NCBI GenBank assembly: GCA_030427585.1
Contig: JAUIBW010000008.1
Location: 5,831-69,830 of the forward strand
From: Bacteroidia bacterium
GTDB taxonomy: Bacteria > Bacteroidota > Bacteroidia > Flavobacteriales > Flavobacteriaceae
Direction of reading: 5' to 3'
DNA: 64,000 bases
In this document: piece by piece, positions 9,301 through 57,323 of the stretch
How positions within the stretch are numbered: position 1 is the stretch's first letter
How the letters are laid out: the number at the start of each line of letters is the position of its first letter
The notes under the pieces: model-generated
What the model saw: only the letters and a program-made list of their open reading frames with translations
Told to the model about the DNA's origin: nothing
Database searches by the model: none
Program-made: the position numbers and the translations under genes

Positions 9301-9312
9301 TGACGAATGTCA
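9301..9312 (+). promoter_or_regulatory. FixK/FNR-like box TGACGAATGTCA upstream of the usp-cls-patatin unit
   Basis: Palindrome of the TGAY-N4-RTCA class. TATTTTTA (9336-9343) follows exactly 23 nt downstream. Confidence 0.6.
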
Positions 9313-9363
9313 TAGTTCCTCTATGCTTTCTAATCTATTTTTAGAACTATAAACCTTTTACAC

Positions 9364-9506
9364 ATGAAACGAATATTAAGAAAATTAAAAATTTCTTCAC
9401 AAAAGAAGATATTTAAATTTTCTTAATGTGAGAACGGAGTGGTTGCATACGTTCTCAATTTTATAATTAATGTATTATCAAGTAATTACTAAAATTTAAA
9501 CGTATG
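9364..9506 (+). promoter_or_regulatory. conserved structured 5' leader, copy A (shared with trxA leader 54180-54295)
   Basis: About 88 percent identity over the last 87 nt up to and including the start codon. Conserved hairpin GAGAACG-loop-CGTTCTC, with substitutions only in the loop. Confidence 0.6.
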
Positions 9507-10343
9507 AAAAATATCCTTCTTCCTACCGACTTTTCAGACAATGCCAGAAACGCCATACACTATGCTTTAGAGTTTTTTAAAAATGAACTCTGTACTTTTC
9601 ACCTCTTTAATGTACAAAAAGCATCTAAGTATACCACAGATGATCTTATGGCTGCTCCTGCTAATACTACAATCCACCAATCGGTAATTAGCGACGCCAA
9701 AAAGAAACTTAATCAAATGGTCAAAGAATTAACCGACCAATATCCAGACGAAAACTATACATTTAATACCATTACTGATTATGATGTCTTTATAGATGCT
9801 ATACGACAAGCGGTTAAATCTAAAAATATCGATCTTATCATTATGGGAACAAATGGTGCTACAGGAGCATCAGAGGTTGTGTTTGGTAGTAATACACTTA
9901 ATGTTATTCGCAAAATAGATTGTCCTATAATTGCCATTCCCCAAGGATATAAATTTAAAGATCCAAAAATCATTTTGTATGCCATTGATTACTGGGATCA
10001 TTTTAATACAGAAGGTATCGAACCTTTAATGGATACTATCATAAAACATAAATCTTCTTTGCGGATCCTTAAAATCAAAGAAGATGATACTATCACTGTA
10101 GCCGATTTTGATGACAAAAAACATATGAAGGAGTTTTTTAAAGAAATAAATCATACCTTTCATTCTATTATCAATGTACCAACTGCTTTAGCTATAAATA
10201 GTTTTGTACAAATCATGGATATTGATATGACAGCTATGTTTATTAAAAGAGAAACATTTTTAGATCGATTTTTTAAGGGATCTGAAACTTCTAAAATAAG
10301 TTATGAAACAAGAGTGCCTCTTTTGATTATGCATAGCCAATAA
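9504..10343 (+). CDS. universal stress protein, tandem Usp domains
   Basis: ILLPTDFSDNARNAIHYAL, IIMGTNGATGASEVVFGSNT, second Usp half at the C-terminus. Confidence 0.85.
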   Translation: MKNILLPTDFSDNARNAIHYALEFFKNELCTFHLFNVQKASKYTTDDLMAAPANTTIHQSVISDAKKKLNQMVKELTDQYPDENYTFNTITDYDVFIDAIRQAVKSKNIDLIIMGTNGATGASEVVFGSNTLNVIRKIDCPIIAIPQGYKFKDPKIILYAIDYWDHFNTEGIEPLMDTIIKHKSSLRILKIKEDDTITVADFDDKKHMKEFFKEINHTFHSIINVPTALAINSFVQIMDIDMTAMFIKRETFLDRFFKGSETSKISYETRVPLLIMHSQ

Positions 10344-10366
10344 ACCTTAAAAACTGATACAATAAA

Positions 10367-11788
10367 ATGTTATTATATATTGCTACTGCGCTTTATATCC
10401 TACTGGGAATTTTTATTGTTATACGATTGCTCTTAAATGGAATGCGGCCTACAAAAACACTGGCTTGGCTTCTTACTATTTTTACGATTCCTGTTGGCGG
10501 CATCTTTTTGTATTTAATGCTTGGTAGAAATCGTAGAAAAAATAAATTATTCCGATTAAAACATACACCAAAAGTAACCTCATATATTACAAAAGCACTG
10601 GGTCAATATTCTCCAATAACAAAAGAAGAATATGCAGAACATCACAAAATCATTTCTCTAATTACCAAAAACTCCTACTTTGCCCCCTGCACTGGAAATG
10701 ACATAAAATTGCTTAAAAATGGTAAAGCCACTTTTCAAGCTATATTTGACGCTTTAGAGAGTGCAGAGCATTTTATTCATTTAGAATATTACATTTTTGA
10801 AGAAGGTAAATTAACATCTGATCTTTTCGATCTTTTTCAGAAAAAAGTAAAAAACGGAGTAACAGTACGTGTATTATATGATGGCATAGGTAGTATGTCT
10901 TTGAGTAAAAAGTATATCAAAAAACTACAATACATCGGAGTCGAAATCCATAAATTCTTACCTATAAAATTTGGTAAATTTTTATCATCGATAAACTATA
11001 GAAACCATCGTAAGATCATAGTAATAGATGATAAGATTGCATTTACAGGAGGTATCAACGTGTCTGATAAATATGTAAAAGGTGATGCCAACCTAGGAAT
11101 TTGGCATGATATGCATTTACAGCTCAATGGTCCCATTGTTCATAGCCTTCAGGCCATTTTTGCAATGGATTGGTACATGATAAGTGCTAATGATGAAGTC
11201 TTGGATACTTCATATTTTCATACCTATAAAAAAACAGAAGGTTCTACAGCTCAAATCGTACATAGTGGCCCAGATTCTGATTTTTCGGCAACCCAACAGA
11301 TGTATTTTTCTATTATTAATGAAGCCAAAGATTATATCTATATCACAAACCCCTATATTATCCCTGGTGAATCTATTCTCGACGCTTTAAAAGTAGCTTC
11401 AATGAGTGGAATTGATGTAAGAGTACTGCTTTCAGAAAAATCGGATAACGTTATCGTCAAATGGTGTATTCGTTCTTATTTTGAAGATCTGCTACAGGCC
11501 GGAGTAAAAATTTACCTATTCTCTGAAGGTTTTATACACAGTAAAACCATTGTAGCCGATGATACCATATCATCTGTAGGAACAACTAATCTAGATGTTA
11601 GAAGTTTTGAACAAAACTATGAAGTAAATGCAGTAATCTACGACGATAATTTTGCTATAGAATTAAGAGATGATTTTTTGAGAGATATTAAAAATAGTAA
11701 GCAATTAGATTTTAACACTTTTATACAACGCCCTTGGAGTGAAAAATTAAAAGAAGGTTTTGCTAAAATCTTTAGTCCGGTTTTGTAA
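10367..11788 (+). CDS. cls: cardiolipin synthase
   Basis: Two N-terminal TM helices and two HKD motifs (HRKIIVIDD, HSKTIVADD); 473 aa. Confidence 0.88.
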   Translation: MLLYIATALYILLGIFIVIRLLLNGMRPTKTLAWLLTIFTIPVGGIFLYLMLGRNRRKNKLFRLKHTPKVTSYITKALGQYSPITKEEYAEHHKIISLITKNSYFAPCTGNDIKLLKNGKATFQAIFDALESAEHFIHLEYYIFEEGKLTSDLFDLFQKKVKNGVTVRVLYDGIGSMSLSKKYIKKLQYIGVEIHKFLPIKFGKFLSSINYRNHRKIIVIDDKIAFTGGINVSDKYVKGDANLGIWHDMHLQLNGPIVHSLQAIFAMDWYMISANDEVLDTSYFHTYKKTEGSTAQIVHSGPDSDFSATQQMYFSIINEAKDYIYITNPYIIPGESILDALKVASMSGIDVRVLLSEKSDNVIVKWCIRSYFEDLLQAGVKIYLFSEGFIHSKTIVADDTISSVGTTNLDVRSFEQNYEVNAVIYDDNFAIELRDDFLRDIKNSKQLDFNTFIQRPWSEKLKEGFAKIFSPVL

Positions 11789-11793
11789 ATTTA

Positions 11794-12582
11794 TTGATGA
11801 AAATGAAAGCATTTAAAAACATAGGGATAGTACTTTCTGGCGGAGGGTTTAAAGGTGTTGCGCACATAGGAGTTATACACGCCCTTGAGGAAGCTGGAAT
11901 AACTGTTAATTTCATTTCGGGTGCTAGTGCAGGAGCCATAGTAGGGTCACTATATGCAGGTGGTTACTCTACAGAGGAAATAAAAAATTTCTTTGCCAAA
12001 ACCCCTTTGTTCAAATTAAATCGGTTCTCTCGAAAAAAAGCTGGTTTTTTAGATTCTGAAAAATTTTATAACGACCTGCTTACTTATTTTCCCGAAAACT
12101 CCTTTGAATCCTTACATAAACAATTATTTGTTACAGCAACCAATCTTATAGAGGGAACAACAAAAGTATTTAACACAGGAGAATTGATAAAACCTTTGTT
12201 GGCATCTGCTGCATTCCCTGGTGTTTTTACTCCGGTAACTATCAATAATGAATTATATGCAGATGGTGGAATTTTGGATAATTTCCCGGTATCACCGCTC
12301 AAAAAACATTGTGATCTAATTATTGGTGTAGATGTGTCCCCAATTAGGAAACCAAAAATTTCTGATTTTAAGCATTCATACAATGTTATGCAGCGGGCCT
12401 ACTATCTTAGAGCCATGCCAAATGCCGAAGTTAAGTTTAACCTCTGCGATATTATAATTCAACCAAAAAAATTGGTTAATCATGGTCTTTTTAGCAGTAG
12501 TAGCTTAGATAAAATATATAATCTTGGGTATCAGGAAGCAAAATTACAATTAGGATTATTCCTAAAAAATCAAGAAGGATGA
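11794..12582 (+). CDS. patatin-like phospholipase
   Basis: GIVLSGGGFKGVAHIGV (oxyanion hole), GASAGA (GxSxG), ADGG (catalytic Asp). Confidence 0.85.
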   Translation: MMKMKAFKNIGIVLSGGGFKGVAHIGVIHALEEAGITVNFISGASAGAIVGSLYAGGYSTEEIKNFFAKTPLFKLNRFSRKKAGFLDSEKFYNDLLTYFPENSFESLHKQLFVTATNLIEGTTKVFNTGELIKPLLASAAFPGVFTPVTINNELYADGGILDNFPVSPLKKHCDLIIGVDVSPIRKPKISDFKHSYNVMQRAYYLRAMPNAEVKFNLCDIIIQPKKLVNHGLFSSSSLDKIYNLGYQEAKLQLGLFLKNQEG

Positions 12583-13211
12583 TTAAAGAAATAAAAAATA
12601 AATACAGTCACCTTTTTGAAGACGAATTGCTCGAAGAAATTAATCAGGTAGGAACTTTTAAAGAAATCCCCGAAGGCTTTGAGCTTATCAAACCCGGAAG
12701 CTATATTAAGTTTATGCCTTTGATCATTAGCGGTGCTATTAAAGTGCTTAGAGGAGATCATGATGGTGACGAATTATTGCTATATTTTTTAGAACAAGGA
12801 GATACCTGTGCTATGACATTATCTTGTTGCCTGAGACATCATAAAAGTGAAATTAAAGCTATTGCTGAGACTGATACCAAATTAGTAATGATTCCTATCG
12901 AAAAAATGGAAGAATGGACATCAAAATACAAATCCTGGAGAAACTTTGTTTTTAGCAGCTATCATAAACGATTAGTAGAAACCATTGAAACCATCGACAG
13001 TATTGCTTTTCTAAATATGGATGATCGTTTATTAAAGTACCTTAAGGAAAAGACCAAAATCAGTCATACCAAAATTATCAATACTACACATCAGCAAATT
13101 GCATATGATCTTCATACGTCTAGAGTAGTAATCTCGAGATTGCTTAAAAAACTTGAAAAAAAAGGTATTGTTAAACTTAATAGAAACAATATTGAAGTAT
13201 TAGAAATGTAA
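12579..13211 (+). CDS. Crp/Fnr-family transcriptional regulator (no N-terminal Cys cluster)
   Basis: cNMP-binding-like barrel (G..I.F.PLIISGAIKV....DG.E..LYFLEQGD.CA) plus C-terminal HTH THQQIAYDLHTSRVVISRLLKKLEKKGIV. Confidence 0.85.
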   Translation: MIKEIKNKYSHLFEDELLEEINQVGTFKEIPEGFELIKPGSYIKFMPLIISGAIKVLRGDHDGDELLLYFLEQGDTCAMTLSCCLRHHKSEIKAIAETDTKLVMIPIEKMEEWTSKYKSWRNFVFSSYHKRLVETIETIDSIAFLNMDDRLLKYLKEKTKISHTKIINTTHQQIAYDLHTSRVVISRLLKKLEKKGIVKLNRNNIEVLEM

Positions 13212-13253: not shown

Positions 13254-13269
13254 TGTAACAATTGTTACT
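13254..13269 (+). promoter_or_regulatory. palindrome TGTAACAATTGTTACT (GTAAC-N4-GTTAC class) upstream of the persulfide dioxygenase gene
   Basis: Perfect 14-bp inverted repeat. The 12-bp core ends 23 nt before TATTTTTG (13291-13298). Confidence 0.6.
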
Positions 13270-13273
13270 GTAT

Positions 13274-18013: not shown

Positions 18014-18457
18014 TTAACTCAATAGACGTTTTTGTTTACTCTCTTTCATTATCGTTTTTATTACATCAAAAATCTTTATTTTTGTTTCTTTATAACGGTT
18101 TAGGTATTTACTTACTGCCATCGTTAACTCCCAATGATCCTCTTTATATTGTTTTTCCTCTACAGGTTGATCAACTCCATCTAACAATATGGTAAGTTCA
18201 TTATGGTGATTAATTATTTTTTTTAGTAGTGGGTCGAGACCTTTCCTGCTAAGAGATAGTTCTTGTAGTATGCTCTTACTCTTTTCAAAAATCTTTTTTG
18301 AAATTAGTTGTATTGTATGGTTTTCTATAAGTTCATCTAAAAAATGCTGTTCATCTTTGATGAATTTAAGTTCTGACACCCAGTTTAGAGAAATCTCATG
18401 TAATTCTTCTGGGCTTCGCCATTCTACATATTTTATATTGGGTTGCTTTGCTTTCAT
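18014..18457 (-). CDS. hypothetical protein, paralog of 19090-19506
   Basis: Shares the W.S.L.FI..E.HF...L, H.(N/S)EL and Y..F...K..IF blocks with the 19090 gene. Confidence 0.5.
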   Translation of the reverse strand: MKAKQPNIKYVEWRSPEELHEISLNWVSELKFIKDEQHFLDELIENHTIQLISKKIFEKSKSILQELSLSRKGLDPLLKKIINHHNELTILLDGVDQPVEEKQYKEDHWELTMAVSKYLNRYKETKIKIFDVIKTIMKESKQKRLLS

Positions 18458-18540: not shown

Positions 18541-18984
18541 TTAATCTATTTCAATTACCTTTTTGGGTTGTTCTTTTGCTTCTTCTTTTTTTAGAAGATT
18601 GAGAGTAAGCACTCCATTTTTGTAGACAGCTTTAATCTTTTCATTCTGGTTTACGCTGGTAGGTAACTGTAATTTTCTATCGAACTCGTTATAACTAAAT
18701 TCTCTACGTGTGTACCCTTTATCCTCTTCTACCTCTTCTTTACTTTTTTGAGCACAAATGTGTAACACATCATCTTCCATAGTTACTTCAATATCTTTTT
18801 TTGAAAAACCAGGAACTGCGAGTTCAATTTCAAAATTATCCTTGTTTTCTTTGACATTCATTGCAGGAAGATTTCTGTCTTTTACAAAAAAATCGTCTGC
18901 AAAAAAATCATCTGTATCTAACCATGTAGAAACACGATCATTGATCCAGGGAAATCTGCTTTTGTTAAATTTAATTAATGACAT
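18541..18984 (-). CDS. Hsp20/alpha-crystallin small heat-shock protein
   Basis: PAMNVKENKDNFEIELAVPGFSKKDIEV......L.I, NGVLTLNL. Confidence 0.9.
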   Translation of the reverse strand: MSLIKFNKSRFPWINDRVSTWLDTDDFFADDFFVKDRNLPAMNVKENKDNFEIELAVPGFSKKDIEVTMEDDVLHICAQKSKEEVEEDKGYTRREFSYNEFDRKLQLPTSVNQNEKIKAVYKNGVLTLNLLKKEEAKEQPKKVIEID

Positions 18985-19047
18985 AACGTTAAGGTTTATT
19001 AGAGTTATTATTATGCTAAAATTAAGCTAGCAATGAGCATATTAAAA

Positions 19048-19059
19048 TGACAATTATCA
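19048..19059 (-). promoter_or_regulatory. FixK/FNR-like box TGACAATTATCA upstream of hsp20
   Basis: On the minus strand it is followed after 24 nt by TAATTTTA; 64 nt upstream of the ATG. Confidence 0.6.
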
Positions 19060-19506: not shown

Positions 19507-19563
19507 TTTTTTCAGGTTTTTAAAGCTTACCAAAAAGGTACTTAACCTCTATGAATTAAAAAG

Positions 19564-19575
19564 TGATAATTATCA
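19564..19575 (-). promoter_or_regulatory. FixK/FNR-like box TGATAATTATCA
   Basis: Perfect palindrome. On the minus strand, 23 nt later comes TACCTTTT. Confidence 0.6.
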
Positions 19576-22391: not shown

Positions 22392-23246
22392 TTAATTTGC
22401 TAAATCATGTAAGGCCAATACCGGTACTTGAGAATGATGTCCTAAATTTTTTACCATTGGCCTTGAAAATATACTTCCAAAAAAACTGTGTTTTCTATTA
22501 ATAAAAGTAATCATATCACTCCCCCGGCTTTCTACAAAACTGCTAAGCCCTCCTTTTATATCTATATTATGCAGTGTATGAAAAGTGTATTTTATACCAT
22601 CCAAGTATTCTACAAGTAATCCCTTGTTGTTTTCTTGTTCTTCATCCAGATCATCATCATTTGTAACATGAAGAATTCTTATTTCAGCATTTGTGATTCG
22701 TGCTATTTCAATTAGATATTGAAGCTCTCTGCGCTTAATTTGAGTTCTATAATCTGTTGGAAATACAATTTCTTTTGGTTCTTTATAGTTAGTGTTTTCT
22801 GGTATTGCCATAACAGGGCAATTTCTTACTTTTTCCATCACCAAAACTGTATTACTACCGTAAATGAGATCTCCAGCATTAGTCGTTCCTTTGGTTCCCA
22901 TAACGATCATTTCGATATCTTTTTTCTCTACGGTATCTTTGATCGCACTCAATACATTATTGAATTGAGATATCATAAAAAATTTATGATTAGGGTTATC
23001 ATCTCTAAAACTTAACCTTTCTTCGATTTTACTTAAGCCCTTTTCTGATTTCTCTTTGGCCTCTTCATAAAGTCGTTCTCCTGGTTCGGGAATCATCATG
23101 CTTTCTAATGCATAACCTGTTGCATTAAACACATTAAGTACGTAAAAATCACATGTTTCATTTTTATATAACTCTATAGCATATAGTATAGCATTCCACG
23201 CGTTTTTTGAAAAATCCGTGGGCAACAAAATCTTTTTTTTCATCAT
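22392..23246 (-). CDS. universal stress protein, tandem Usp domains
   Basis: ILLPTDFSKNAWNAILYAIELY, VMGTKGTTNAGDLIYGSNT. Confidence 0.85.
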   Translation of the reverse strand: MMKKKILLPTDFSKNAWNAILYAIELYKNETCDFYVLNVFNATGYALESMMIPEPGERLYEEAKEKSEKGLSKIEERLSFRDDNPNHKFFMISQFNNVLSAIKDTVEKKDIEMIVMGTKGTTNAGDLIYGSNTVLVMEKVRNCPVMAIPENTNYKEPKEIVFPTDYRTQIKRRELQYLIEIARITNAEIRILHVTNDDDLDEEQENNKGLLVEYLDGIKYTFHTLHNIDIKGGLSSFVESRGSDMITFINRKHSFFGSIFSRPMVKNLGHHSQVPVLALHDLAN

Positions 23247-23300
23247 TTAGGTCTTTAAGATTAGTCTTATAAATGTATGGATCTAGCCTTGTAAAAACTA

Positions 23301-23312
23301 TGATAATTATCA
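23301..23312 (-). promoter_or_regulatory. FixK/FNR-like box TGATAATTATCA
   Basis: Perfect palindrome overlapping the stop codon of the upstream usp. On the minus strand, 23 nt later comes TACATTTA. Confidence 0.6.
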
Positions 23313-24158
23313 GCTTAACTCAGGAATGACCAAGAAAGGAATGGTTGTGCGAAATCCTATTTTTTTAATAGTAGGTTCATGTGTGATACTTTCTATAAGA
23401 CTATGTTTATATTGTGACATACATAGTATATCAATATCCATATTATCAATAAACTCATTGATAAGTTTAGCTTTTTGAGTAAATCGAGGAATCCAATGGA
23501 TACAGTAATTAAAGTCTTTGAAATTTTCTTTAAGATGCTTAAGATTATGTTCTTGTATTTCGTCTAATTTCTCTTCTTCATGAATATGCATCACCCTAAT
23601 GTTTGAAGAAAATAGAGTAACAATTTCTAGAAGAGGTTTTAAAGACTCTATATTATAAAGACATTTAAAATCTGTTGCAAAAGCAATTTCTGTAGGTTTT
23701 TTAAAATCAAATTCATCTGGTACTGCCAGTATCGTGCAATCCTTAATATTATTAATGACTTTAACCGTATTACTTCCTATAAGAACTTCTTTGGCACCAC
23801 TGGCTCCCTTAGTTCCCATAACAACAAGATCGATATTTTTACTTTTTATGGTTTTGTTAATGGTATCGGTAAGTTTTTTGGAAACAGAAATAGTTTCAAA
23901 CGTATGCTTATAATCCTCTGTATCTCTAACTATAGAATGGAGCGTTTCGGTAAGCTTTTCCTGCGACTCATTACTTAATTCCTGATATAATAAATCTCCT
24001 TTGGCAATATTAATTCTACTTGTTAAAACCGGAGTATCTACATTAAAAGTATTTAGAATATAAAATTGACACTCCTGATCTTGAAATAATCTGGTCGCAT
24101 AAAAAAGTGCGCCATAAGCGTTATTAGAAAAATCTGTGGGAACAAGTATCCTTTTCAT
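23310..24158 (-). CDS. universal stress protein, tandem Usp domains
   Basis: ILVPTDFSNNAYGALFYATRLF, VMGTKGASGAKEVLIGSNT. Confidence 0.85.
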   Translation of the reverse strand: MKRILVPTDFSNNAYGALFYATRLFQDQECQFYILNTFNVDTPVLTSRINIAKGDLLYQELSNESQEKLTETLHSIVRDTEDYKHTFETISVSKKLTDTINKTIKSKNIDLVVMGTKGASGAKEVLIGSNTVKVINNIKDCTILAVPDEFDFKKPTEIAFATDFKCLYNIESLKPLLEIVTLFSSNIRVMHIHEEEKLDEIQEHNLKHLKENFKDFNYCIHWIPRFTQKAKLINEFIDNMDIDILCMSQYKHSLIESITHEPTIKKIGFRTTIPFLVIPELS

Positions 24159-24216
24159 CTCTTTTCAGTTTTACAAATTATATCATAAAATTAGCTTTAT
24201 AATAACAGGAATACTA

Positions 24217-24228
24217 TGACAAATCTCA
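24217..24228 (-). promoter_or_regulatory. FixK/FNR-like box TGACAAATCTCA (one half degenerate)
   Basis: On the minus strand, 23 nt later comes TAATTTTA. Confidence 0.5.
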
Positions 24229-24243
24229 TGTCTACAAAAACTC

Positions 24244-25098: not shown

Positions 25099-25138
25099 TT
25101 GTCTATATTTATCAGACTAGCGAGGTCTAGGATTAATA

Positions 25139-25990: not shown

Positions 25991-26002
25991 CTCTATATAA
26001 TT

Positions 26003-26851: not shown

Positions 26852-26910
26852 TCGGTTGCTTTTTTTGATATGTTATACTCAAAAGTAGGTAATCACAGAT
26901 GCAAAAACTA

Positions 26911-26922
26911 TGATTTTTGTCA
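26911..26922 (-). promoter_or_regulatory. FixK/FNR-like box TGATTTTTGTCA serving the usp 26003 operon
   Basis: On the minus strand, 23 nt later comes TACTTTTG, a perfect TAnnTTTG. Confidence 0.65.
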
Positions 26923-26934
26923 GTTGAGGAATCA

Positions 26935-26946
26935 TGACATTTGTCA
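26935..26946 (+). promoter_or_regulatory. FixK/FNR-like box TGACATTTGTCA serving ccoI
   Basis: Perfect palindrome; 23 nt later comes CATATTTG; 47 nt upstream of the ccoI ATG. Confidence 0.6.
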
Positions 26947-26992
26947 TATTATATAAATGCATACTTTTTCATATTTGTAACAAACAAATTCT

Positions 26993-30266: not shown

Positions 30267-30278
30267 TGACAATTATCA
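30267..30278 (+). promoter_or_regulatory. FixK/FNR-like box TGACAATTATCA (distal, nap region)
   Basis: 23 nt later comes TAGTTTTA (30302-30309); about 260 nt upstream of the porin ATG. Confidence 0.55.
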
Positions 30279-30466
30279 TGCTTTATGACTCTATTTGAGA
30301 ATAGTTTTATCAGTATATTATCGAGGTGAAAAAAGACATCTAACTATTTGTTTATTCTCTAATCTAAGAAAAACAAATAGTATATTCTGAGTATGGTTTA
30401 AGAATGGGAATGATGGTTGATTTGCACCTTGTATTTAGTCAATTTTTATGGTAAAAAAACTAAACC

Positions 30467-30478
30467 TGACTGATATCA
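30467..30478 (+). promoter_or_regulatory. FixK/FNR-like box TGACTGATATCA (proximal, nap region)
   Basis: 61 nt upstream of the porin ATG; a weak AATATTTA lies 23 nt downstream. Confidence 0.5.
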
Positions 30479-30538
30479 TTGTATGCAATAATAAATGAAC
30501 CAATATTTACCGTAGTTAATTTATAATCAAATCTTACT

Positions 30539-36864: not shown

Positions 36865-36894
36865 TAAAATTGCGTGAGGGATTGAAACGGCATC

Positions 36895-36942
36895 CTTTTC
36901 TGTTACTCTGATTTTGTCGAAGAATAAGAAGTAACAGAAAAG
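36895..36942 (+). other. 12-bp stem hairpin inside the FeS-nrfD intergenic spacer
   Basis: CTTTTCTGTTAC-24 nt-GTAACAGAAAAG. Confidence 0.5.
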
Positions 36943-36988
36943 ATATAGTGGAAAGCCCGACCCCGTGGGCACGCCAAAAAAACAACAC

Positions 36989-38996: not shown

Positions 38997-39008
38997 TGAT
39001 AAATGTCA
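38997..39008 (+). promoter_or_regulatory. FixK/FNR-like box TGATAAATGTCA upstream of the cco operon
   Basis: 23 nt later comes TACTTTTG (39032-39039), a perfect TAnnTTTG; 52 nt upstream of the ccoS ATG. Confidence 0.7.
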
Positions 39009-39059
39009 TTTTTTTAGAAAATGTTCGCACATACTTTTGACTCATAATCAAAAGTAAGT

Positions 39060-45414: not shown

Positions 45415-45430
45415 TGTAACCTTTGTTACC
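45415..45430 (+). promoter_or_regulatory. palindrome TGTAACCTTTGTTACC (GTAAC-N4-GTTAC class)
   Basis: The core ends 23 nt before TAATTTTA (45452-45459); about 240 nt upstream of the 45669 gene. Confidence 0.45.
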
Positions 45431-45599: not shown

Positions 45600-45611
45600 T
45601 GATCTGTGTCA
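45600..45611 (+). promoter_or_regulatory. FixK/FNR-like box TGATCTGTGTCA
   Basis: 58 nt upstream of the 45669 ATG. TACTTTTT follows 19 nt downstream, so the spacing is off by 4 relative to the others. Confidence 0.45.
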
Positions 45612-48092: not shown

Positions 48093-48929
48093 TCACTCAT
48101 GCAACACCAAAAAGGGAATAGTAATGTGATAACTTATTTTTTCGACTGTAGGATGAAATAAAATACGCTGGAAGAAATTAAGGTTTTTGGCAACCATAGT
48201 AATCATATCAATATCCCTGCTTTCAACAAAACATTGTATAGCTTCTTCGATATTGGGATTAGAAAGGAAGTGAAAACTATGCTCTATTGTGTCAATAGAA
48301 TCATCTAAAAAATCTTTATTTTTTCTTTGTCTATCGCTTAATTCTTGTTCTTTTTTAGCAACATGCAAAACCCGTAAAGCAGCTTCATTTAAAGTAAGAG
48401 TATCCATGATTGTATTCAATACTCTGCTTTTATATAACATATTATAATCTGTGGGAAATGCAATTTCTTTAGGTTTGGTATAGATGGCTTTTTCGGGTAT
48501 TACCAAAACAGGGCACTTAACTTTTGTGATCACATCTCCTGTATTGCTACCTATGGTTTTTTCCTTAATCCCCGAAGCTCCTTTGGTTCCCATAACAATA
48601 AAATCAATATTCTTTTCCTTAACCTGTTTTCTAATCGCATCTACAAAAAAGATATATTCATTAATTTTGAAGAAGCTATGTTTTGTATTTAAAGGTAGCT
48701 TCTCTATTCTTTTAAGCAATAATTGCATTTGCTCTGTATCGCTTTGGGTACTTTTTTCTAAGACTGTTTCTTTTGAACCATAAAATGAATCTCTTCCTAT
48801 CATTTCTTCAAAGGGAGAGACATGTAACAAATAAAAGTTACATTTCACCCTTTTAAAAAATGACAATGCATATGCAACAGCATTCCACGAATTTTCAGAA
48901 AAATCTGTAGGGATCAGGATGTTTTTCAT
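48093..48929 (-). CDS. universal stress protein, tandem Usp domains
   Basis: ILIPTDFSENSWNAVAYALSFF, VMGTKGASGIKEKTIGSNT. Confidence 0.85.
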   Translation of the reverse strand: MKNILIPTDFSENSWNAVAYALSFFKRVKCNFYLLHVSPFEEMIGRDSFYGSKETVLEKSTQSDTEQMQLLLKRIEKLPLNTKHSFFKINEYIFFVDAIRKQVKEKNIDFIVMGTKGASGIKEKTIGSNTGDVITKVKCPVLVIPEKAIYTKPKEIAFPTDYNMLYKSRVLNTIMDTLTLNEAALRVLHVAKKEQELSDRQRKNKDFLDDSIDTIEHSFHFLSNPNIEEAIQCFVESRDIDMITMVAKNLNFFQRILFHPTVEKISYHITIPFLVLHE

Positions 48930-48981
48930 TTTAAATACTTTCTAATACAACAAATGTATTAGGATGTACTCATGAAAAATA

Positions 48982-48993
48982 TGACAAAAATCA
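48982..48993 (-). promoter_or_regulatory. FixK/FNR-like box TGACAAAAATCA
   Basis: On the minus strand, 23 nt later comes TACATTTG, a perfect TAnnTTTG. Confidence 0.65.
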
Positions 48994-49013: not shown

Positions 49014-50078
49014 TTATTCTACCAACTGAAGACCAGGCAAATCCAAAATTTTTATATTACGGCCTTCGATTTCAATCAGTCCATCTTTTTTAAAACTAGA
49101 TAGTGTACGTATCAGGCTTTCTGTTGCGATCCCAGCGACACTTGCCAAATCATTTCTGGATATTTTTATGCTATCCATAGGTTTTTTGTCTAATATGTTA
49201 GCAAATTGAAGTATGGTTTGAGCTGTTTTTTTACGTACCGAACTATAGGCCATTTGTAATAATTGCTCTTTAATTTCAGAAAGGTTACCAGCAAGCAGTT
49301 CCATTAATTCGAGGGAAATATTCTTACTTTTTTCTAGAATCTCTTTCAAATTATTTTTTGATATTCCTGCTAATTCTAAGTCTTCAACTGCTGTTGCCGA
49401 TTCTAGATATGGTGTATTATCTATAAACGAAGTAAACCCCAGGAAATCATCGGTTTTGTATAAATTGGTAATCAGTTCTTTACCATTCTCATCCATTTTA
49501 TGACTTTTCACAACTCCTTTTAGGATAAGATATATGTTATTAGAATGCTCTCCTTCTTCATAGATTACTTCTCCCTTTTTAAATTTGGAAATCACACCAT
49601 GATCATCAAAAAAATTCTTAAGCTCATGTAAATTCCTAAGTCCACTATCTTCAGAAGTGTTTATTGCTGAAGCAGAAAATTCTTGATCTTTAACAACTTT
49701 AGAGAGTAAGGCTGCTTTTGCAAGACGACTTTCGATTGCACTCAATAATTCATCTTCTTCAAAAGGTTTGGTTAGATAATCATCAGCTCCCAAGTCCATT
49801 CCTTTTCGAATCTCTTTATGTTCCGTTTTTGCAGATAAAAATATAAAAGGGATATGGTTGGTCGCCGTATCGCAGGATAGTGCTTCCAGTACTCCATATC
49901 CATCAACCTCGGGCATCATAATATCACAAACAATAATATCTGGTTTTTCTTCTTTGGCTTTAACGATGCCTACTTTTCCGTTTGGAGATGTGATTACTTT
50001 ATAATCTGAAAGCTCTAATAGTTCTGCAGTATTTTCTCTAAGTGCTGTGTCATCTTCAATTAAAAGAATAGTTTTCAT
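49014..50078 (-). CDS. hybrid response regulator: REC domain fused to Crp/Fnr-type cNMP-binding-like and HTH domains
   Basis: REC: ILLIEDD, IIVCDIMMPEVDG, FLSAKT. C-terminal: effector barrel (GEVIYEEGEHSNNIYLILKGVVK) and HTH ISRNDLASVAGIATESLIRTLSSFKKDGLI. Confidence 0.85.
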   Translation of the reverse strand: MKTILLIEDDTALRENTAELLELSDYKVITSPNGKVGIVKAKEEKPDIIVCDIMMPEVDGYGVLEALSCDTATNHIPFIFLSAKTEHKEIRKGMDLGADDYLTKPFEEDELLSAIESRLAKAALLSKVVKDQEFSASAINTSEDSGLRNLHELKNFFDDHGVISKFKKGEVIYEEGEHSNNIYLILKGVVKSHKMDENGKELITNLYKTDDFLGFTSFIDNTPYLESATAVEDLELAGISKNNLKEILEKSKNISLELMELLAGNLSEIKEQLLQMAYSSVRKKTAQTILQFANILDKKPMDSIKISRNDLASVAGIATESLIRTLSSFKKDGLIEIEGRNIKILDLPGLQLVE

Positions 50079-51310
50079 GATTCGTGGGTATTGGTTGTAG
50101 GTATAGTAACTGTAAATGTAGATCCTTGATTTTCCTTACTTGTAAAAGTAATACTCCCACCTAGGTTTTCCAAATGGGTTTTCACAATATTCAACCCAAT
50201 ACCTGTTCCTTGATCTAATAAGGCATTTTCTGCCCTAAAATATCGTTTAAAAATAAAATCTTGTTCTTTTTTAGGAATACCAATACCTTGATCAATAATC
50301 TTAAATGTAAGGATATTATCTTCGAAACATACCTGCAAATCAATTACTGTATGTTCTCCAGAATATTTGATGGCATTATTAATTAAATTTGTAAGTACGA
50401 GTTCTAAAATCTTTTCATCAAATTCTATAACATAATCATCGATATCTTTGGGGTAATTTATTCTTTGCCCGTCTTTTAGTAACATATTAGCATCATACAC
50501 CACTTCATTAACAACCTTACTAAGTGGAAACTGGCTATATTTATAAGTTACTTTTCCTGTTTCGAGACGTTCGATAGATAAAAAATCATTTAAGATATTA
50601 TCCAGATATTTCACTTTGTTTTTTATAGTATCGAGATGTTTTTCTCTTTTTCCTTGTTGTTCTGTTTTGGTATATTTTCCTGCAAGAGTGGCTGAAGTAA
50701 GAATACCACTTAATGGTGTTTTAAACTCATGAGAGACAAGTGAAAGGAATTTTGTTTTTAGCTCACTTAAATCTCTTTCTTTTTTTAAAGATTCTTTAGT
50801 TTGAGCTTCGGCTTCCATACGAAGTTTTACTTCTTCTTTTAATTCTTGTATGGTATGATGCAGTTCTTCTGTACGTTCTTCTATTTTTTGCTCTAGTTTA
50901 GCATTTAAATCTTGTATTTGCTGTTCTTGTTGTTTTCGAAGTGTAATATCGATAATAAGGGCCATTACATAATTACTACCATAAATTGTAAATGGGTTTA
51001 AGCCTGCTTCTACCGGAAACACAGAGCCGTCTTTTCGTATCCCAAAAAGATCTCGTCCTGCTCCCATATGTCGTTTTTCACTATACGCTACAAAACCATC
51101 AAAATGCTTTTTGTGACCATGATGGTATTTTTTTGGTATCAACGTATTAAGATGTTTTCCTACTAACTCATTTGTATCATAGCCAAAAATAGTATTAGCA
51201 GATCCATTAGTTGCTACTATTGTTTGTTTTTCGTTCACTACAATGATACCTTCTGAAATGGCCTCAGAAAGTAATTTGAAAATGTTATTGTCTTTTTCGA
51301 AAACTTTCAT
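50075..51310 (-). CDS. PAS-domain sensor histidine kinase (FixL-like PAS, tentative)
   Basis: PAS, coiled coil, HisKA (LVSHEFKTPLS) and HATPase (NLINNAIKY, DQGIGI, GTGIGL). ATGA overlap with the regulator gene. Confidence 0.85.
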   Translation of the reverse strand: MKVFEKDNNIFKLLSEAISEGIIVVNEKQTIVATNGSANTIFGYDTNELVGKHLNTLIPKKYHHGHKKHFDGFVAYSEKRHMGAGRDLFGIRKDGSVFPVEAGLNPFTIYGSNYVMALIIDITLRKQQEQQIQDLNAKLEQKIEERTEELHHTIQELKEEVKLRMEAEAQTKESLKKERDLSELKTKFLSLVSHEFKTPLSGILTSATLAGKYTKTEQQGKREKHLDTIKNKVKYLDNILNDFLSIERLETGKVTYKYSQFPLSKVVNEVVYDANMLLKDGQRINYPKDIDDYVIEFDEKILELVLTNLINNAIKYSGEHTVIDLQVCFEDNILTFKIIDQGIGIPKKEQDFIFKRYFRAENALLDQGTGIGLNIVKTHLENLGGSITFTSKENQGSTFTVTIPTTNTHES

Positions 51311-51346
51311 GTTTCAAAAGTAATCATTTTGATTTGTTACCAGAAC

Positions 51347-51358
51347 TGATTTATATCA
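51347..51358. promoter_or_regulatory. FixK/FNR-like box TGATTTATATCA in the divergent region between the kinase operon and the TerB-like/cbpA operon
   Basis: On the minus strand, TACTTTTG (51315-51322) follows after 24 nt. On the plus strand, TAAATTTA follows after 23 nt. Confidence 0.55.
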
Positions 51359-51417
51359 TAAAAAATATGAGTCAATCTAATTAAATTTATATTCATTAAC
51401 CGATAATTTTTTATGAT

Positions 51418-51825
51418 ATGAATACGACTCAAAACATAGGGATTATATTTTATCAAAATCTAGGCAAGCTATTCTATGCAATTGCTGCGTCGGATAAGAT
51501 AGTTCGTAAATCAGAATATGATTCATTACGAAAAATCGTGAAAAAAGAATGGGCAAAAGTAGATGAAATTGAAGATGAGTTTGGAGCCGATGCTTCTTTT
51601 CAAATTGAGATTGTTTTTGACTGGCTTGATTATGAAGAGTTGAGCGCAGAAGAATGTTTTATTCAATTCGAAACCTTTTATAAAGAACATAAATCTCATT
51701 TTACAGAACGATTAAAGCAGTTGATCTGGATCACAGCCAATACTATTGCAGGTGCATTTTCTGGTAAAAACAAATCCGAATTAATGATGCTCGGGCGATT
51801 GAAATTAATTTTTAAAAAACAGTAA
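51418..51825 (+). CDS. TerB/DjlA-N-like domain protein (tentative)
   Basis: 135 aa helical protein with LFYAIAASDK.V...E; precedes cbpA. Confidence 0.35.
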   Translation: MNTTQNIGIIFYQNLGKLFYAIAASDKIVRKSEYDSLRKIVKKEWAKVDEIEDEFGADASFQIEIVFDWLDYEELSAEECFIQFETFYKEHKSHFTERLKQLIWITANTIAGAFSGKNKSELMMLGRLKLIFKKQ

Positions 51826-51842: not shown

Positions 51843-52727
51843 ATGGAGTTTATTGATTACTATAAAATATTAGGGGTTTCAAAAACTGCTTCAGATAGTG
51901 ATATAAAAAAGTCATATAGAAAATTGGCTAGAAAATATCATCCCGATTTAAATCCTAATGATAAAGAGGCAGAAAGAAAATTCAAAGAAATTAATGAGGC
52001 CAATGAAGTACTAAGTAATCCCGAAAACCGAAAAAAATACGATCAATATGGTAAAGACTGGAAACATGCTGAAGAGTTTGAAAAAGCTAAACAATCACAA
52101 CATCAATACAAAAATACAGGGCAACAGCATTACAGAAATTATTCTGAAAGTGATTTCTCAGATTTTTTTGAATCAATGTTTGGAGGTTCCGGAAGAAGTA
52201 CAGCATATGGTAGAACCCGATACAGAGGGGAAGACTACAATGCCGAACTACATCTTAATTTAATGGATGTCTATAAAGCCCACAAAAGAACACTAACAAT
52301 TAATAAAAAAAATATTCGGATCACAATCCCTGCTGGGGTTGAGAACGGACAAACCATAAAAATCAAAAACCATGGAGGCTCAGGAACTCAAGGTGGACCT
52401 AATGGCGACTTATATATCACTTTTGTTATCGAAAACAAAACCCCTTTTAGACGTAATAAAAGTGACCTTTATCTACATGTTGATATTGATCTATATACAG
52501 CAGTGTTAGGAGGTGAAATTATGATTGAAACTTTAGACGGAAAGGTAAAAATAAATGTAAAACCTGAAACTCAGAATGGTACCAAAATAAAACTAAAAGG
52601 GAAAGGGTTTCCTGTATATAAAAAAGAAGGTCAATTTGGAGATCTTTTTGTTACATATACTATCAAGATTCCAAAAAACCTGTCTGAACAACAAAAAGAA
52701 CTATTTAGAACATTATCCAAGCTTTAA
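51843..52727 (+). CDS. cbpA: J-domain co-chaperone, CbpA type (no zinc-finger region)
   Basis: [34 protein letters not shown]. The C-terminal DnaJ_C repeats are present and the CxxCxGxG region is absent. Confidence 0.85.
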
Positions 52728-53168: not shown

Positions 53169-53180
53169 TGATCAATATCA
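53169..53180 (+). promoter_or_regulatory. FixK/FNR-like box TGATCAATATCA
   Basis: 23 nt later comes TATTTTTA; 52 nt upstream of the 53232 ATG. Confidence 0.6.
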
Positions 53181-53231
53181 TATTTTTTGATGGTTTGCTA
53201 TTTTATTTTTATATGAATTAAAAACTTTCGT

Positions 53232-54119
53232 ATGAAAACTCTTATCACTTGTATCGTTTTTTTAAGTTTCATCGCTTGTAAAAAACAAAAGCCTATTCAA
53301 AAATCATCAGAGCAAAAAGAAACCGAACAACAACATATAGAACAAAAAGCAGAAGATACTGTATCTGTTTTCTCTGAAGAAGGCCTAGAGCTAAATCAGG
53401 AAAAAACAAAAGCCATAAAAAGAGAACGATTAATCACTGCCAAAGATGATAAAACCCAATTACAAGAGCTGGTAGTTTCTAAAAGCTTCTTAAAAGAAGA
53501 AGATCTTTATGTTTTAGATTATCAATACCCGTACTTAAATGAGAAAATTGATCCTTTATACTCGGTATTTAATGATTTTATTTCAGAAAACTATCTGAAC
53601 ATTGAAAAAACCGAAAATCAAATTCTTGAAGACAAAGAGTTACTTTGTGATACCTTAAAAATTAATAGGTTTAGAGATAAAAGAATTATTGATTATAAAA
53701 TCTATAGTGTGAAAAGTGATCGTATAAGTGTTGTACTTTACAAAGAGAATTATTATTCTGGAATGCTATATTCTACATATCTCTTTGATTGTATAAACTT
53801 TGATCTTAAGAAACATAATTTCATTTATTTTGATGATTTCTTTGAAACTGGAACAGAAGAAGAAGTGTTTACTACTATAAATACAATTATAAAAAATGGT
53901 ATTAGTTCTGGAGAATTGTATCATGACTGTTGGGAGCTTTCAAAAGGAGATTTTAAAGCTTACAAAAATAATTTTGTGGTAAATGATGATACAGTAGAAT
54001 TTTATTTTGATGATTGTGTTATTTGTCCTTCGTATACAGGAACATATTCTATAGAAATCCCCATTAGAGACATAATGCATCTTATCAAAAAATATAATGA
54101 CCGCCCGATAGTAAGTTAA
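53232..54119 (+). CDS. hypothetical lipoprotein (possibly DUF3298/DUF4163-like)
   Basis: FLSFIAC lipobox. The domain guess rests only on the YQYPYL... pattern. Confidence 0.4.
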   Translation: MKTLITCIVFLSFIACKKQKPIQKSSEQKETEQQHIEQKAEDTVSVFSEEGLELNQEKTKAIKRERLITAKDDKTQLQELVVSKSFLKEEDLYVLDYQYPYLNEKIDPLYSVFNDFISENYLNIEKTENQILEDKELLCDTLKINRFRDKRIIDYKIYSVKSDRISVVLYKENYYSGMLYSTYLFDCINFDLKKHNFIYFDDFFETGTEEEVFTTINTIIKNGISSGELYHDCWELSKGDFKAYKNNFVVNDDTVEFYFDDCVICPSYTGTYSIEIPIRDIMHLIKKYNDRPIVS

Positions 54120-54179: not shown

Positions 54180-54295
54180 ATGAAACGAACATTAAGAAAT
54201 GTAAATATTTCTTAATGTGAGAACGGAGTGGTTACACACGTTCTCAATTTTATAATTAATTTATTTTTAGATAATTACTAAAATTTAAACGTGTG
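54180..54295 (+). promoter_or_regulatory. conserved structured 5' leader, copy B (shared with usp leader 9364-9506)
   Basis: Two hairpins (ATTAAGAAAT-GTAAAT-ATTTCTTAAT and GAGAACG-13 nt-CGTTCTC), then AT-rich sequence identical to copy A up to the start codon. Confidence 0.6.
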
Positions 54296-54592: not shown

Positions 54593-54594
54593 CC

Positions 54595-55239: not shown

Positions 55240-55245
55240 AATAAG

Positions 55246-55944: not shown

Positions 55945-55962
55945 AATAATTTATGACATAGA

Positions 55963-56004
55963 AACAATAACCTCACAGGTTTTGAAACCTGTGAGGTTAT
56001 TGTT
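55963..56004. terminator. bidirectional terminator hairpin with a CCTCACAGGT core (repeat family copy 4)
   Basis: AACAATAACCTCACAGGTTT / AAACCTGTGAGGTTATTGTT, between the convergent deoD and usp genes. Confidence 0.75.
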
Positions 56005-56844
56005 TTAAATTTTAAATGTAATCACAGGCTTGTTTGCATGATTTGCAATATCCTCGCCTATACTTCCATTAAAGAAATGTGCCAAACCACGACGACCATG
56101 GGTCGGAATCGCAATGATATCTGCATTAATCTTTTTACTATAATTAAAAACCCCACTTTCTACACTATAGTCATTAAAGTAAGTTACCTTATCATACGTA
56201 TCTAGATTGCCAGAGTCTGCTTTAAAAAGAAATTCTCTTACTCGTTCTTCTATTTGATCCGAACTTCTAAATTGTTCTCCTGGTAAATTAACATATAACA
56301 AATGTATATTTGCATCTAGATCGTTAAATAATTTCATTGCATTATGATATGCTTTAATATTTTCTATCTTAAAATCACAAGCAAATACAACTTCTTTTAA
56401 AGCAAAGTTATCTACAGGGTTCTTTATAACCAACACGGGGATATCTGATGTGCGTACTACTTTTTCTGTGTTTGACCCTATAAATACTTCTTCTCGCAAA
56501 CCACTAATACCATGGGATCCCATAACGATAAGGTCTGCATCATTTTCGTGAGCAACTTCATTAATTTCACTAAAAATCTTATAGTTTTGTACCGTCTCTG
56601 TAATTTTAATACCTTTTAGGTATTCTTTATCAAGAAAAGTACTAAACCTTTTTTCGGCAAGTTTCATATAATACATTGCTTCATTCGCCTCCTGAGTTTC
56701 ATTTTTAATTAATACGGCTTCAGACAATCCCAGCATATGCAATACTATGATTTCAGCATTTTGTTGTTTAGCTAATAGTGCTGCAACCTGTAATGCGTAT
56801 TCTGAATATTCTGAAAAGTCTACGGGTACAAGAATTTTTTTCAT
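56005..56844 (-). CDS. universal stress protein, tandem Usp domains
   Basis: ILVPVDFSEYSEYALQVAALLA, VMGSHGISGLREEVFIGSNT, second half PTHGRRGLAHFFNGSI. Confidence 0.85.
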   Translation of the reverse strand: MKKILVPVDFSEYSEYALQVAALLAKQQNAEIIVLHMLGLSEAVLIKNETQEANEAMYYMKLAEKRFSTFLDKEYLKGIKITETVQNYKIFSEINEVAHENDADLIVMGSHGISGLREEVFIGSNTEKVVRTSDIPVLVIKNPVDNFALKEVVFACDFKIENIKAYHNAMKLFNDLDANIHLLYVNLPGEQFRSSDQIEERVREFLFKADSGNLDTYDKVTYFNDYSVESGVFNYSKKINADIIAIPTHGRRGLAHFFNGSIGEDIANHANKPVITFKI

Positions 56845-56896
56845 GATTATCTGTTTTTATAATATCAAAATTAGAAGATGTTATTACCAATTAATA

Positions 56897-56908
56897 TGAT
56901 AATTATCA
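56897..56908 (-). promoter_or_regulatory. FixK/FNR-like box TGATAATTATCA
   Basis: On the minus strand, 23 nt later comes TAATTTTG, a perfect TAnnTTTG. Confidence 0.65.
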
Positions 56909-56978
56909 TATCAATATAATACATAGTATGTGTAAAAAATAATTTTTTTTATAGTATATTTCTATACTACTAAAAACA

Positions 56979-57251
56979 ATGCAAAAACATTATAACATCA
57001 CAGTAAAAGGAAAAGTCCAAGGAGTATGGTATAGAAAAAATACCCAGGAAAAAGCTATAGTGCTTCAAATTACAGGAAACGTAAGAAACCTACCTAACGG
57101 AGATGTTTATATAGAAGCCGAAGGAGATAAAAACCAATTAAACCTCTTATTAGAATGGTGTGCTATAGGCCCGGAATTTGCAAAAGTAGATACTGTTTCT
57201 TTTGAAGAAGGTGACTTGCAACTTTTTAAAAGCTTTGATGTTTTGCATTAG
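56979..57251 (+). CDS. acylphosphatase
   Basis: V.GKVQGVWYRKNT; 90 aa. Confidence 0.8.
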   Translation: MQKHYNITVKGKVQGVWYRKNTQEKAIVLQITGNVRNLPNGDVYIEAEGDKNQLNLLLEWCAIGPEFAKVDTVSFEEGDLQLFKSFDVLH

Positions 57252-57311
57252 CCCCTTTTTTAAACCTTATTGCTAATTAAATCACAAATTAATTTAACTT
57301 CTTGTTAAGTA

Positions 57312-57323
57312 TGACATTTCTCA
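57312..57323 (+). promoter_or_regulatory. FixK/FNR-like box TGACATTTCTCA upstream of the peroxiredoxin gene
   Basis: 23 nt later comes TATTTTTA. It is 152 nt upstream of the ATG, which implies a long leader. Confidence 0.45.

Follow-up and report, generated by a model that had tools for sequence, protein, structure and literature searches.

The 64,000-nucleotide stretch of DNA analyzed here (the window: positions 5,831 to 69,830 of the forward strand of contig JAUIBW010000008.1, GenBank assembly GCA_030427585.1; 33% G+C) belongs to a member of the Flavobacteriaceae and carries a series of 12-bp palindromes, TGAY-N4-RTCA, most of which stand exactly 23 nt before a Bacteroidota -7 promoter element. 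These palindromes are probably bound by a dimeric activator of the Crp/Fnr type, most likely a hybrid response regulator that is encoded in the same window (49014-50078), consists of a receiver domain (REC) fused to a Crp-type module and is paired with a FixL-type haem-PAS histidine kinase. That the regulator is of the Crp/Fnr type and fused to a receiver, and that the kinase beside it is FixL-like, was overlooked in the first-pass annotation of this DNA and is the main point of interest. The statistics below refer to the window unless a set of several genomes is named.

The first-pass annotation listed 16 twelve-mer boxes, and every one of them is present where it was reported. Fourteen fit the proposed pattern (TGAYNNNNRTCA) in full, and the other two, at 24217 and 57312, carry a C where the pattern has R. 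In the whole window we counted 18 strict matches, compared to 4.9 ± 2.3 expected, and none of 100 shuffles reached 18. Intergenic DNA makes up just 13.2% of the window, yet it contains 14 of these 18 strict boxes, in agreement with the intergenic placement that had been described: 13 are wholly intergenic and the fourteenth touches only a stop codon (23310-23312). First-order resampling of the intergenic segments produced a mean of 0.5 intergenic boxes and a maximum of 4 in 2,000 trials. The remaining four strict matches (5176, 8844, 51722 and 60962) are in coding DNA and are about as many as chance would provide. The genes that had been named as targets were borne out by Pfam, and comprise six usp promoters, hsp20, ccoI-PNPOx, porin-napDAB and ccoS-NO-Q-P-G-H, together with a paralogous unknown, a fatty-acid hydroxylase, a lipoprotein, a peroxiredoxin and the kinase-regulator operon. 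Overall, our data confirm that the observation is real, and stronger than it was first stated to be.

A spacing of 23 nt had been claimed for at least 12 of the boxes. At 13 of the 16, TAnnTTTN was found exactly 23 nt further on, on the strand of the downstream gene, which at a background of 0.0075 per intergenic position corresponds to a binomial P of 1.3e-25. The box at 51347 has a -7 element at 23 nt on one strand and at 24 nt on the other (towards the kinase gene). The exceptions to the spacing are the boxes at 26935 (CATATTTG at 23 nt), 30467 (AATATTTA at 23 nt) and 45600 (TACTTTTT at 19 nt). Most boxes lie 46-63 nt from the ATG. An atlas of transcription start sites in Flavobacterium psychrophilum places the sigma-A box TAnnTTTG at -12 to -5 (PMC9723704). 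Given that position and the 23-nt gap, the palindromes would span -47 to -36 with their centre at -41.5. The centre of the site in class II CRP/FNR promoters of Escherichia coli is likewise 29.5 bp from the T at -12. The reading of the boxes as class II Crp/Fnr sites, which had been suggested with a centre near -41, is therefore supported, as 29.5 bp separate the box centre from the T of the -7 element, the base mapped to -12 in the relative. The rows listed in the F. psychrophilum start site table include one usp promoter, which is without a box, and among these rows there is no direct start site support for the boxes (PMC9723704).

Although the boxes had been described as a local regulon, comparison of genomes revealed a family-wide module. 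We compared the regions ±10 kb around the orthologues of the response regulator in 80 species-level genomes from at least 17 Flavobacteriaceae genera (1.52 Mb), and the architecture is kept in the loci of these 80 species. The window comes from a species of Aquimarina: the closest relatives of its proteins are Aquimarina proteins, and the most similar loci are those of Aquimarina genomes. The 80 loci contain 538 boxes, all of which have the inverted-repeat core TGA-N6-TCA, as do all 16 boxes in the window. TAnnTTTN was located at an offset of 23 in 421 cases, 24 in 22, 25 in 20, and about 4 at each other offset. Each of the 63 full-length loci (63/63) holds between 2 and 11 composite sites (box, 23 nt and -7 element) versus 0.02 expected, and in these loci the composite sites cluster directly 5' of the kinase gene and directly 3' of the regulator gene. 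When all 256 perfect 4-N4-4 palindromes were scanned for positions 23 nt before TAnnTTT, TGAT (173) and TGAC (69) predominated, followed by TAAC (21), and all others had counts of at most 4. The consensus of 420 distinct composite sites is aAa(C>A)TGA(T>C)awwT(A/G)TCA-T followed by a T-rich stretch, in which the distal outer base is C at 64% of sites or A at 28%, and the proximal outer base is T at 98%.

These 420 sites also bear on how the pattern arose and how it might work. Since six of the 16 window boxes precede paralogous usp genes, the pattern might be ascribed to promoter duplication among those paralogues, or to chance in AT-rich DNA. However, the other ten precede unrelated genes, and no conservation was seen across the spacer (-29 to -13) that separates each box from its -7 element, so the composite sites are not copies of one promoter; the numbers expected by chance, given above, are just 0.5 boxes in intergenic DNA and 0.02 composite sites in each locus. 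We count both explanations as already refuted and assign them practically no probability. A different possibility is that the boxes are operators at which a repressor occludes the -33 region, as a site at -47 to -36 overlaps the position of the -33 element. This is quite improbable, because a TTG-type -33 motif is lacking at the box promoters and half of them have an A in place of G at -5, as would be expected of activator-dependent promoters. In addition, the boxes hold a phase exact to one base pair, a constraint typical of class II activation that occlusion would not need, and a second Crp-type box, described below, has the same geometry. These data support the view that the boxes are likely cis-regulatory sites at which a Crp/Fnr-type activator works in class II geometry.

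The expectation that orthologous promoters would keep the box was upheld. It is present before 18 of 18 ccoS orthologues, 12 of 12 of hsp20, 68 of 71 of the gene divergent from the kinase gene, 2 of 2 of the porin gene and 173 of 298 of the usp genes. It is absent from the operon-internal cco genes (ccoNO 0/14, ccoP 0/19, ccoG 0/19) and from unrelated neighbours (PNP 0/37, Mrr-like 0/28, beta-CASP 0/26). The ccoI orthologues all have it (4/4), with irregular -7 elements, and a composite site was found at 16 of 50 orthologues of the lipoprotein gene (53232-54119). Orthologues of the fatty-acid hydroxylase gene have the box in 1 of 14 cases, and relatives have a GTAAC-type box there instead. The inclusion of box 45600, which precedes this gene, in the original set is thus poorly supported: its -7-like spacing is off and the box is not conserved.

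Relatives add further box-driven genes to the list. In 29 of the 80 loci (e.g., L079:6778), a box drives the gene for a ribosome hibernation factor of the S30AE family, which is absent from this window; boxes also drive genes for a 94-residue membrane protein (15 loci), a thioredoxin (7) and an HMA copper chaperone (7), and up to several box-driven usp genes occur per 21 kb. Second only to usp in conservation within the regulon is the gene of a 135-residue protein, divergent from the kinase gene (51418-51825), next to which Aquimarina genomes have a CbpA-like DnaJ gene (51843-52727 in the window). Neither Pfam nor NCBIfam returned anything usable for the regulon proteins of unknown function, even at relaxed thresholds. 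Some UniRef entries name the 135-residue protein as TerB family or DjlA N-terminal domain, the sole lead on its identity.

The hybrid regulator has the acidic pocket, acceptor aspartate, Thr/Ser and lysine of a response regulator. All of its receiver catalytic residues (D9/D10, D52, S82 and K104) are present, and among 139 diverse members of its family D52 is kept in 134, T/S82 in 137 and K104 in 134. Its predicted recognition helix, T319-E320-S-L-I323-R324, aligns to R-E-T-V-x-K/R of a CRP-type structure; E320 is kept in 138 of the 139 members and R324 in all 139, so that at the level of sequence this is a Crp/Fnr protein with the Glu and Arg of the recognition helix. In CRP and FNR, these two residues read the TGA core, and Ser212 of FNR reads the outer T of TTGAT. 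The Ser212 position is taken by Ile323 in the hybrid regulator, and by Ile in 102 of the 139 members, which would fit the lack of an outer T in the box. The earlier equation of the boxes with the core of the FNR/FixK consensus therefore needs to be qualified. A site of the Crp/Fnr type is supported. Its half-site is ATGAY and not TTGAT, and in place of the outer T of the FNR box (TTGAT-N4-ATCAA) the distal base is C or A. Judged by its half-sites, the box is related to FNR/FixK boxes without being a canonical member of that type.

The regulator itself likewise differs from the known members of the Crp/Fnr family. The four cysteines that ligate the cluster of FNR (three N-terminal ones and Cys122) are not found: the only cysteines are Cys51 and Cys69, both in REC, and Cys69 is not conserved. 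The residues of the cAMP pocket are also missing, with E at the position of CRP Arg82 (E or D in 95 of the 139 members) and Y, F or H at that of Glu72. As there is no cysteine cluster and the Arg82 position is acidic, neither an Fe-S cluster nor cAMP would be expected. A FixK protein stands alone and its amount is set by a separate regulator; here, the receiver is fused in cis and the operon has no FixJ-type gene. The family is large, at 1,449 clusters at 50% identity in a full HMMER scan (E <= 1e-30), and the best 150 of these 1,449 clusters are nearly all full-length REC-Crp proteins at 37-66% identity, with a few shorter fragments. Database entries name them merely "response regulator" or "CheY-like/CRP-like". 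No NCBIfam model reached its cut-off on the regulator, and among sequence matches in the PDB no chain spans both the REC and Crp parts. Full-text searches of the literature yielded no paper that describes a REC-Crp regulator, or this box in Flavobacteriia, though a census may mention the domain combination. RgzAB of Flavobacterium johnsoniae was considered as the same system and rejected, as it is unrelated and comprises a GAF kinase and a single-domain regulator.

The kinase gene lies directly upstream of the regulator gene. The best PDB matches of its PAS domain are all haem-PAS oxygen sensors, namely FixL (1d06, E 5.6e-15) and DosP. In alignments to 1d06 and 1dp6 the proximal His of FixL is in register (query "hhgH" versus FixL "rheH"), and this His and the signature R.MG.GRDL.G.RKDG..FPVE.GLNP are kept in 71 of 71 adjacent kinase orthologues. 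With this His, the FG-loop Arg signature and the HisKA and HATPase domains that follow, the protein is, at the level of sequence, a putative FixL-type haem-PAS kinase. The operon also has its own box, which many genera keep at -48/-49 relative to the kinase ATG. In the window, 4 nt separate the -7 element TACTTTTG from this ATG (51311-51346, minus strand), and the order TTTTG, 4-5 nt and ATG is seen again in genera that include Altibacter, Aequorivita and Halomarinibacterium. An ATG 4-5 nt past the -7 element predicts that the kinase-regulator mRNA is leaderless and autoregulated.

Which protein reads the boxes can be approached by asking which Crp-family genes accompany them. In the 80 loci, the hybrid regulator is the only Crp-family gene that consistently adjoins the boxes. 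We favour it as the reader because of this proximity, because the box at its own promoter is conserved, because its helix matches the box and because the second Crp protein of the window goes with another palindrome. The gene for that second, stand-alone Crp protein (12579-13211) is the last of a usp operon downstream of box 9301, and its place inside the island could be taken to suggest that this protein, being a Crp-family member, reads the TGAY boxes. However, its recognition helix (S-R-V-V-I-S-R) has no Glu, the residue that reads the G:C of TGA, and its orthologues were found in just 2 of the 80 loci (L029 and L048), in each case beside GTAAC-N4-GTTAC, which precedes sulfide-oxidation genes there as it does at 13256. 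We therefore consider it very improbable as the reader of the TGAY boxes.

This second palindrome, (T)GTAAC-N4-GTTAC, has an identical 23-nt spacing to TAnnTTT. It occurs in the window at 13256-13267 and 45417-45428, and elsewhere at L029:1491, at L048:20141, in L011, in L013-L015 and in other loci. The genes it precedes encode a persulfide dioxygenase-rhodanese, an SQR-like protein, a rhodanese, SulP and a fatty-acid hydroxylase, and it probably marks a separate, sulfide-responsive Crp-type regulon.

Another candidate would be a regulator of the FNR or FixK type that stands alone and whose gene lies outside the window, with the hybrid merely one of its targets and binding something else. The 12-bp core is common to FNR, FixK and Anr boxes, and the content of the regulon is, as is generally known, classical for those regulators; moreover, because the loci were chosen via the hybrid, the set offers no negative control for an outside regulator. 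Nevertheless, we regard this as unlikely. No stand-alone FNR/FixK-type gene is located within ±10 kb of the hybrid in the 80 species, the outer flank of the boxes lacks the T that FNR and FixK require, and it is the hybrid whose own helix fits the box and whose promoter box is conserved.

Several points nonetheless weigh against the hybrid regulator as reader, or limit how far the case extends. The selection of loci means that the co-occurrence of boxes and regulator covers hybrid-carrying genomes alone, and a Crp/Fnr protein encoded elsewhere could recognise the same TGA-N6-TCA core. Three boxes have an imperfect or displaced -7 element, one of which (45600) is the unconserved site. An AlphaFold2 model of the regulator (pLDDT 69, pTM 0.41) resolves the linker and Crp module poorly and is uninformative on how REC might control Crp. 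Distant REC-Crp members (~40% identity, L083-L087) have TGA-N6-TCA boxes with no demonstrable 23-nt rule. For this organism, the evidence is drawn from sequence comparison. Intergenic TGA-N6-TCA boxes were seen in such distant loci beside usp and HMA genes (L086:2773, L086:3803 and L087:914; 43-45% G+C). As these distant loci have no -7 element at 23 nt, the promoter rule may differ outside the Flavobacteriaceae.

The sites with their fixed spacing and conservation, and the domain make-up of the two proteins with its conserved key residues, are direct observations; from these, with the hybrid regulator as the reader, we infer the following mechanism. The boxes would be centred at -41.5 at Bacteroidota sigma-A promoters and would stand in for the -33 element. 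A drop in oxygen would cause the deoxy-haem kinase to autophosphorylate and to pass the phosphate to Asp52 of the regulator, and the phosphorylated regulator would then bind (C/A)TGAY-N4-RTCAT and recruit RNA polymerase. The direction of this proposed signal follows the analogy of FixL, in which low oxygen activates the kinase. Genes switched on would include those for the cbb3 oxidase and its assembly, the periplasmic nitrate reductase, the eight tandem-domain Usp proteins, Hsp20, the peroxiredoxin, the lipoprotein and the TerB-like/CbpA pair, with the ribosome hibernation factor added in relatives. Positive feedback would result, since the kinase-regulator operon would be among the genes switched on. 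The predicted content matches that of the FixK2, Anr and DosR regulons, as it combines a high-affinity oxidase and nitrate reductase with usp, hsp20, a nearby hemN and a hibernation factor. It also agrees with a measured F. psychrophilum hypoxia stimulon made up of cbb3, hemN, cytochrome c, peroxiredoxin, thioredoxins and uspA, for which no regulator was named (PMC9723704).

One of the closest known counterparts of this system is FixL-FixJ-FixK of rhizobia and Caulobacter, including its hFixL-FxkR-FixK variant. The two would have in common a haem-PAS kinase with the same proximal His, a cofactor-less activator of the Crp/Fnr type that reads a TGA-N6-TCA palindrome, and as targets the cbb3 oxidase (fixNOQP/ccoNOQP), fixGHIS/ccoGHIS, hemN, usp and small heat-shock genes. 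Unlike FixL-FixJ-FixK, the system described here has no FixJ (LuxR-type) or FxkR (OmpR-type) intermediate; with the receiver fused directly to the Crp module, three proteins would become two and one transcriptional step would be lost. It further differs in its half-site (ATGAY not TTGAY), its Bacteroidota -33/-7 promoters and the predicted autoregulation of its operon. The system would work like FixLJ-FixK, but because of this fusion its regulator belongs with neither FNR nor FixK.

Other systems resemble it in part. The class II promoters of FNR and Anr in Proteobacteria have the site centre that is predicted here (-41.5, 29.5 bp before the T at -12), with the site replacing the upstream promoter element, and these regulators share the conserved Glu and Arg of the recognition helix and would also share a regulon of microoxic respiration and usp genes. 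In contrast to them, the hybrid regulator has no N-terminal cysteine cluster, and hence would not sense oxygen by a [4Fe-4S] cluster. It has Ile for Ser212 and a box without the outer T, and its signal would arrive through phosphorylation of the fused receiver. DosS/DosT-DosR of Mycobacterium tuberculosis would be similar in having a haem-based kinase with a response regulator, positive autoregulation and a usp-rich regulon with alpha-crystallin/hsp20 and a ribosome hibernation-type factor. However, the Dos haem is in a GAF and not a PAS domain, and DosR has a NarL/LuxR-type output and a different box, so the resemblance is functional only. HcpR of Porphyromonas and Cur/MalR of Bacteroides belong to the same phylum and have the Crp/Fnr fold and palindromic sites; they differ in standing alone, in sensing a ligand or haem, in having no receiver and in controlling other regulons (general knowledge and PMC8510549).

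Based on Pfam and NCBIfam annotation, the boxes lie in an island of respiration and stress genes at 2.6-58 kb of the window (Table 1). After the molybdenum-cofactor synthesis cluster, its first part holds a usp-cardiolipin synthase-patatin-Crp operon, sulfide-oxidation genes and hsp20 between two paralogous unknowns. Its middle has five usp genes in a row, ccoI, the porin gene followed by the periplasmic nitrate reductase operon, and ccoS-NO-Q-P-G-H. The last part consists of the fatty-acid hydroxylase gene, hemN, more usp genes, the histidine kinase and response regulator genes and the peroxiredoxin gene. In total, eight tandem-domain usp paralogues of ~280 residues each are present in the 64 kb, five of them consecutive.

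Table 1. Genes, clusters and box-containing promoters of the island, with window coordinates.
Feature	Coordinates	Strand	Details
Molybdenum-cofactor synthesis cluster	2634-9267
Candidate 17th site, outside the original 16	5176..5218	+	TGACCAAAGTCA, 23 nt, TAGCTTTG; within moaD, 78 nt before moeB (ThiF) ATG
usp paralogues	9504-10343, 22392-26851 (five), 48093-48929, 56005-56844
usp (9504)-cardiolipin synthase-patatin-Crp210 promoter	9301..9343	+	box TGACGAATGTCA, 23 nt, TATTTTTA
hsp20 (18541-18984) promoter	19017..19059	-	box, 23 nt, TAATTTTA
Promoter of unknown helical protein, a paralogue of 18014-18457	19533..19575	-	box (19564), 23 nt, TACCTTTT; true start of protein probably ATG at 19506
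usp 22392-23246 promoter	23270..23312	-	box, 23 nt, TACATTTA
usp 23310-24158 promoter	24186..24228	-	near-consensus box TGAGATTTGTCA, 23 nt, TAATTTTA
usp triplet (26003-26851, 25139-25990, 24244-25098) promoter	26880..26922	-	box, 23 nt, TACTTTTG
ccoI (P-type ATPase) and PNPOx-like promoter	26935..26977	+	box TGACATTTGTCA, 23 nt, imperfect -7 CATATTTG
Promoter 260 nt 5' of porin ATG	30267..30309	+	box, 23 nt, TAGTTTTA; long leader or unannotated RNA
porin-napD-napA-napB-napC-like-Fer4-NrfD promoter	30467..30509	+	box TGACTGATATCA, 23 nt, imperfect -7 AATATTTA
ccoS-ccoNO-ccoQ-ccoP-ccoG-ccoH-DsbD-like promoter	38997..39039	+	box, 23 nt, TACTTTTG
Box of fatty-acid hydroxylase gene, weakest member	45600..45611	+	TGATCTGTGTCA; -7-like element TACTTTTT at 19 nt
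usp 48093-48929 promoter, hemN downstream	48951..48993	-	box, 23 nt, TACATTTG; 21 nt past regulator stop codon
Hybrid response regulator	49014..50078	-	REC, cNMP-binding-like and Crp-type HTH; Pfam Response_reg, cNMP_binding, HTH_Crp_2
Sensor histidine kinase	50075..51310	-	N-terminal FixL-type PAS, HisKA, HATPase; Pfam PAS, HisKA, HATPase_c
Divergent promoter with shared box 51347-51358	51315..51389	+ and -	+ side: 23 nt, TAAATTTA, TerB/DjlA-N-like gene 51418-51825, then cbpA; - side: 24 nt, TACTTTTG, kinase
DUF3298-like lipoprotein 53232-54119 promoter	53169..53211	+	box, 23 nt, TATTTTTA
usp 56005-56844 promoter	56866..56908	-	box, 23 nt, TAATTTTG
1-Cys peroxiredoxin 57475-58140 promoter	57312..57354	+	near-consensus box TGACATTTCTCA, 23 nt, TATTTTTA; leader ~110 nt

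The site at 5176 is the only one among the four coding-region boxes that has a -7 element at 23 nt, and it may be a candidate internal hypoxia promoter that ties molybdenum-cofactor synthesis to the nitrate reductase. Unusually long leaders (about 110-225 nt; 9344-9503, 30310-30538 and 57355-57474) come after three of the box promoters, those of boxes 9301, 30267 and 57312. In these leaders, no credible open reading frame of at least 20 codons and no Rfam match was found. Within the molybdenum-cofactor cluster, 6943-7299 encodes a 23S rRNA intervening-sequence protein of the four-helix-bundle family. A match to the Flavo-1 RNA motif of Rfam (RF01705, 57.8 bits) was noted at 36867-36966 on the plus strand, between the Fer4 and NrfD genes of the nitrate reductase operon.

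Marine Flavobacteriia are major degraders of algal matter on particles and biofilms, where oxygen declines steeply. To our knowledge, no oxygen-responsive regulator or regulon has so far been defined in them. The broader proposition, for which we see about even chances, is that Flavobacteriaceae, and probably the wider Bacteroidota, sense oxygen by an undescribed two-protein path in which a FixL-like haem kinase signals to a REC-Crp regulator that directly activates a hypoxia/dormancy regulon, acting at -33/-7 promoters from a place set to the exact base pair. If this is true, REC-Crp proteins would be a new class of response regulator, and theirs would be the first defined geometry of a global activator at promoters of the Bacteroidota. 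The analysis provides a testable cis-element, (C/A)TGAY-N4-RTCAT, 23 nt and TAnnTTTG, as well as a candidate sensor and regulator and a conserved list of targets that can be used for annotating hundreds of genomes and for designing reporters. It also offers evidence that class II-type activation geometry would extend to the unusual sigma-A promoter of the Bacteroidota, and suggests that the logic of FixLJ-FixK may be compressible through domain fusion.

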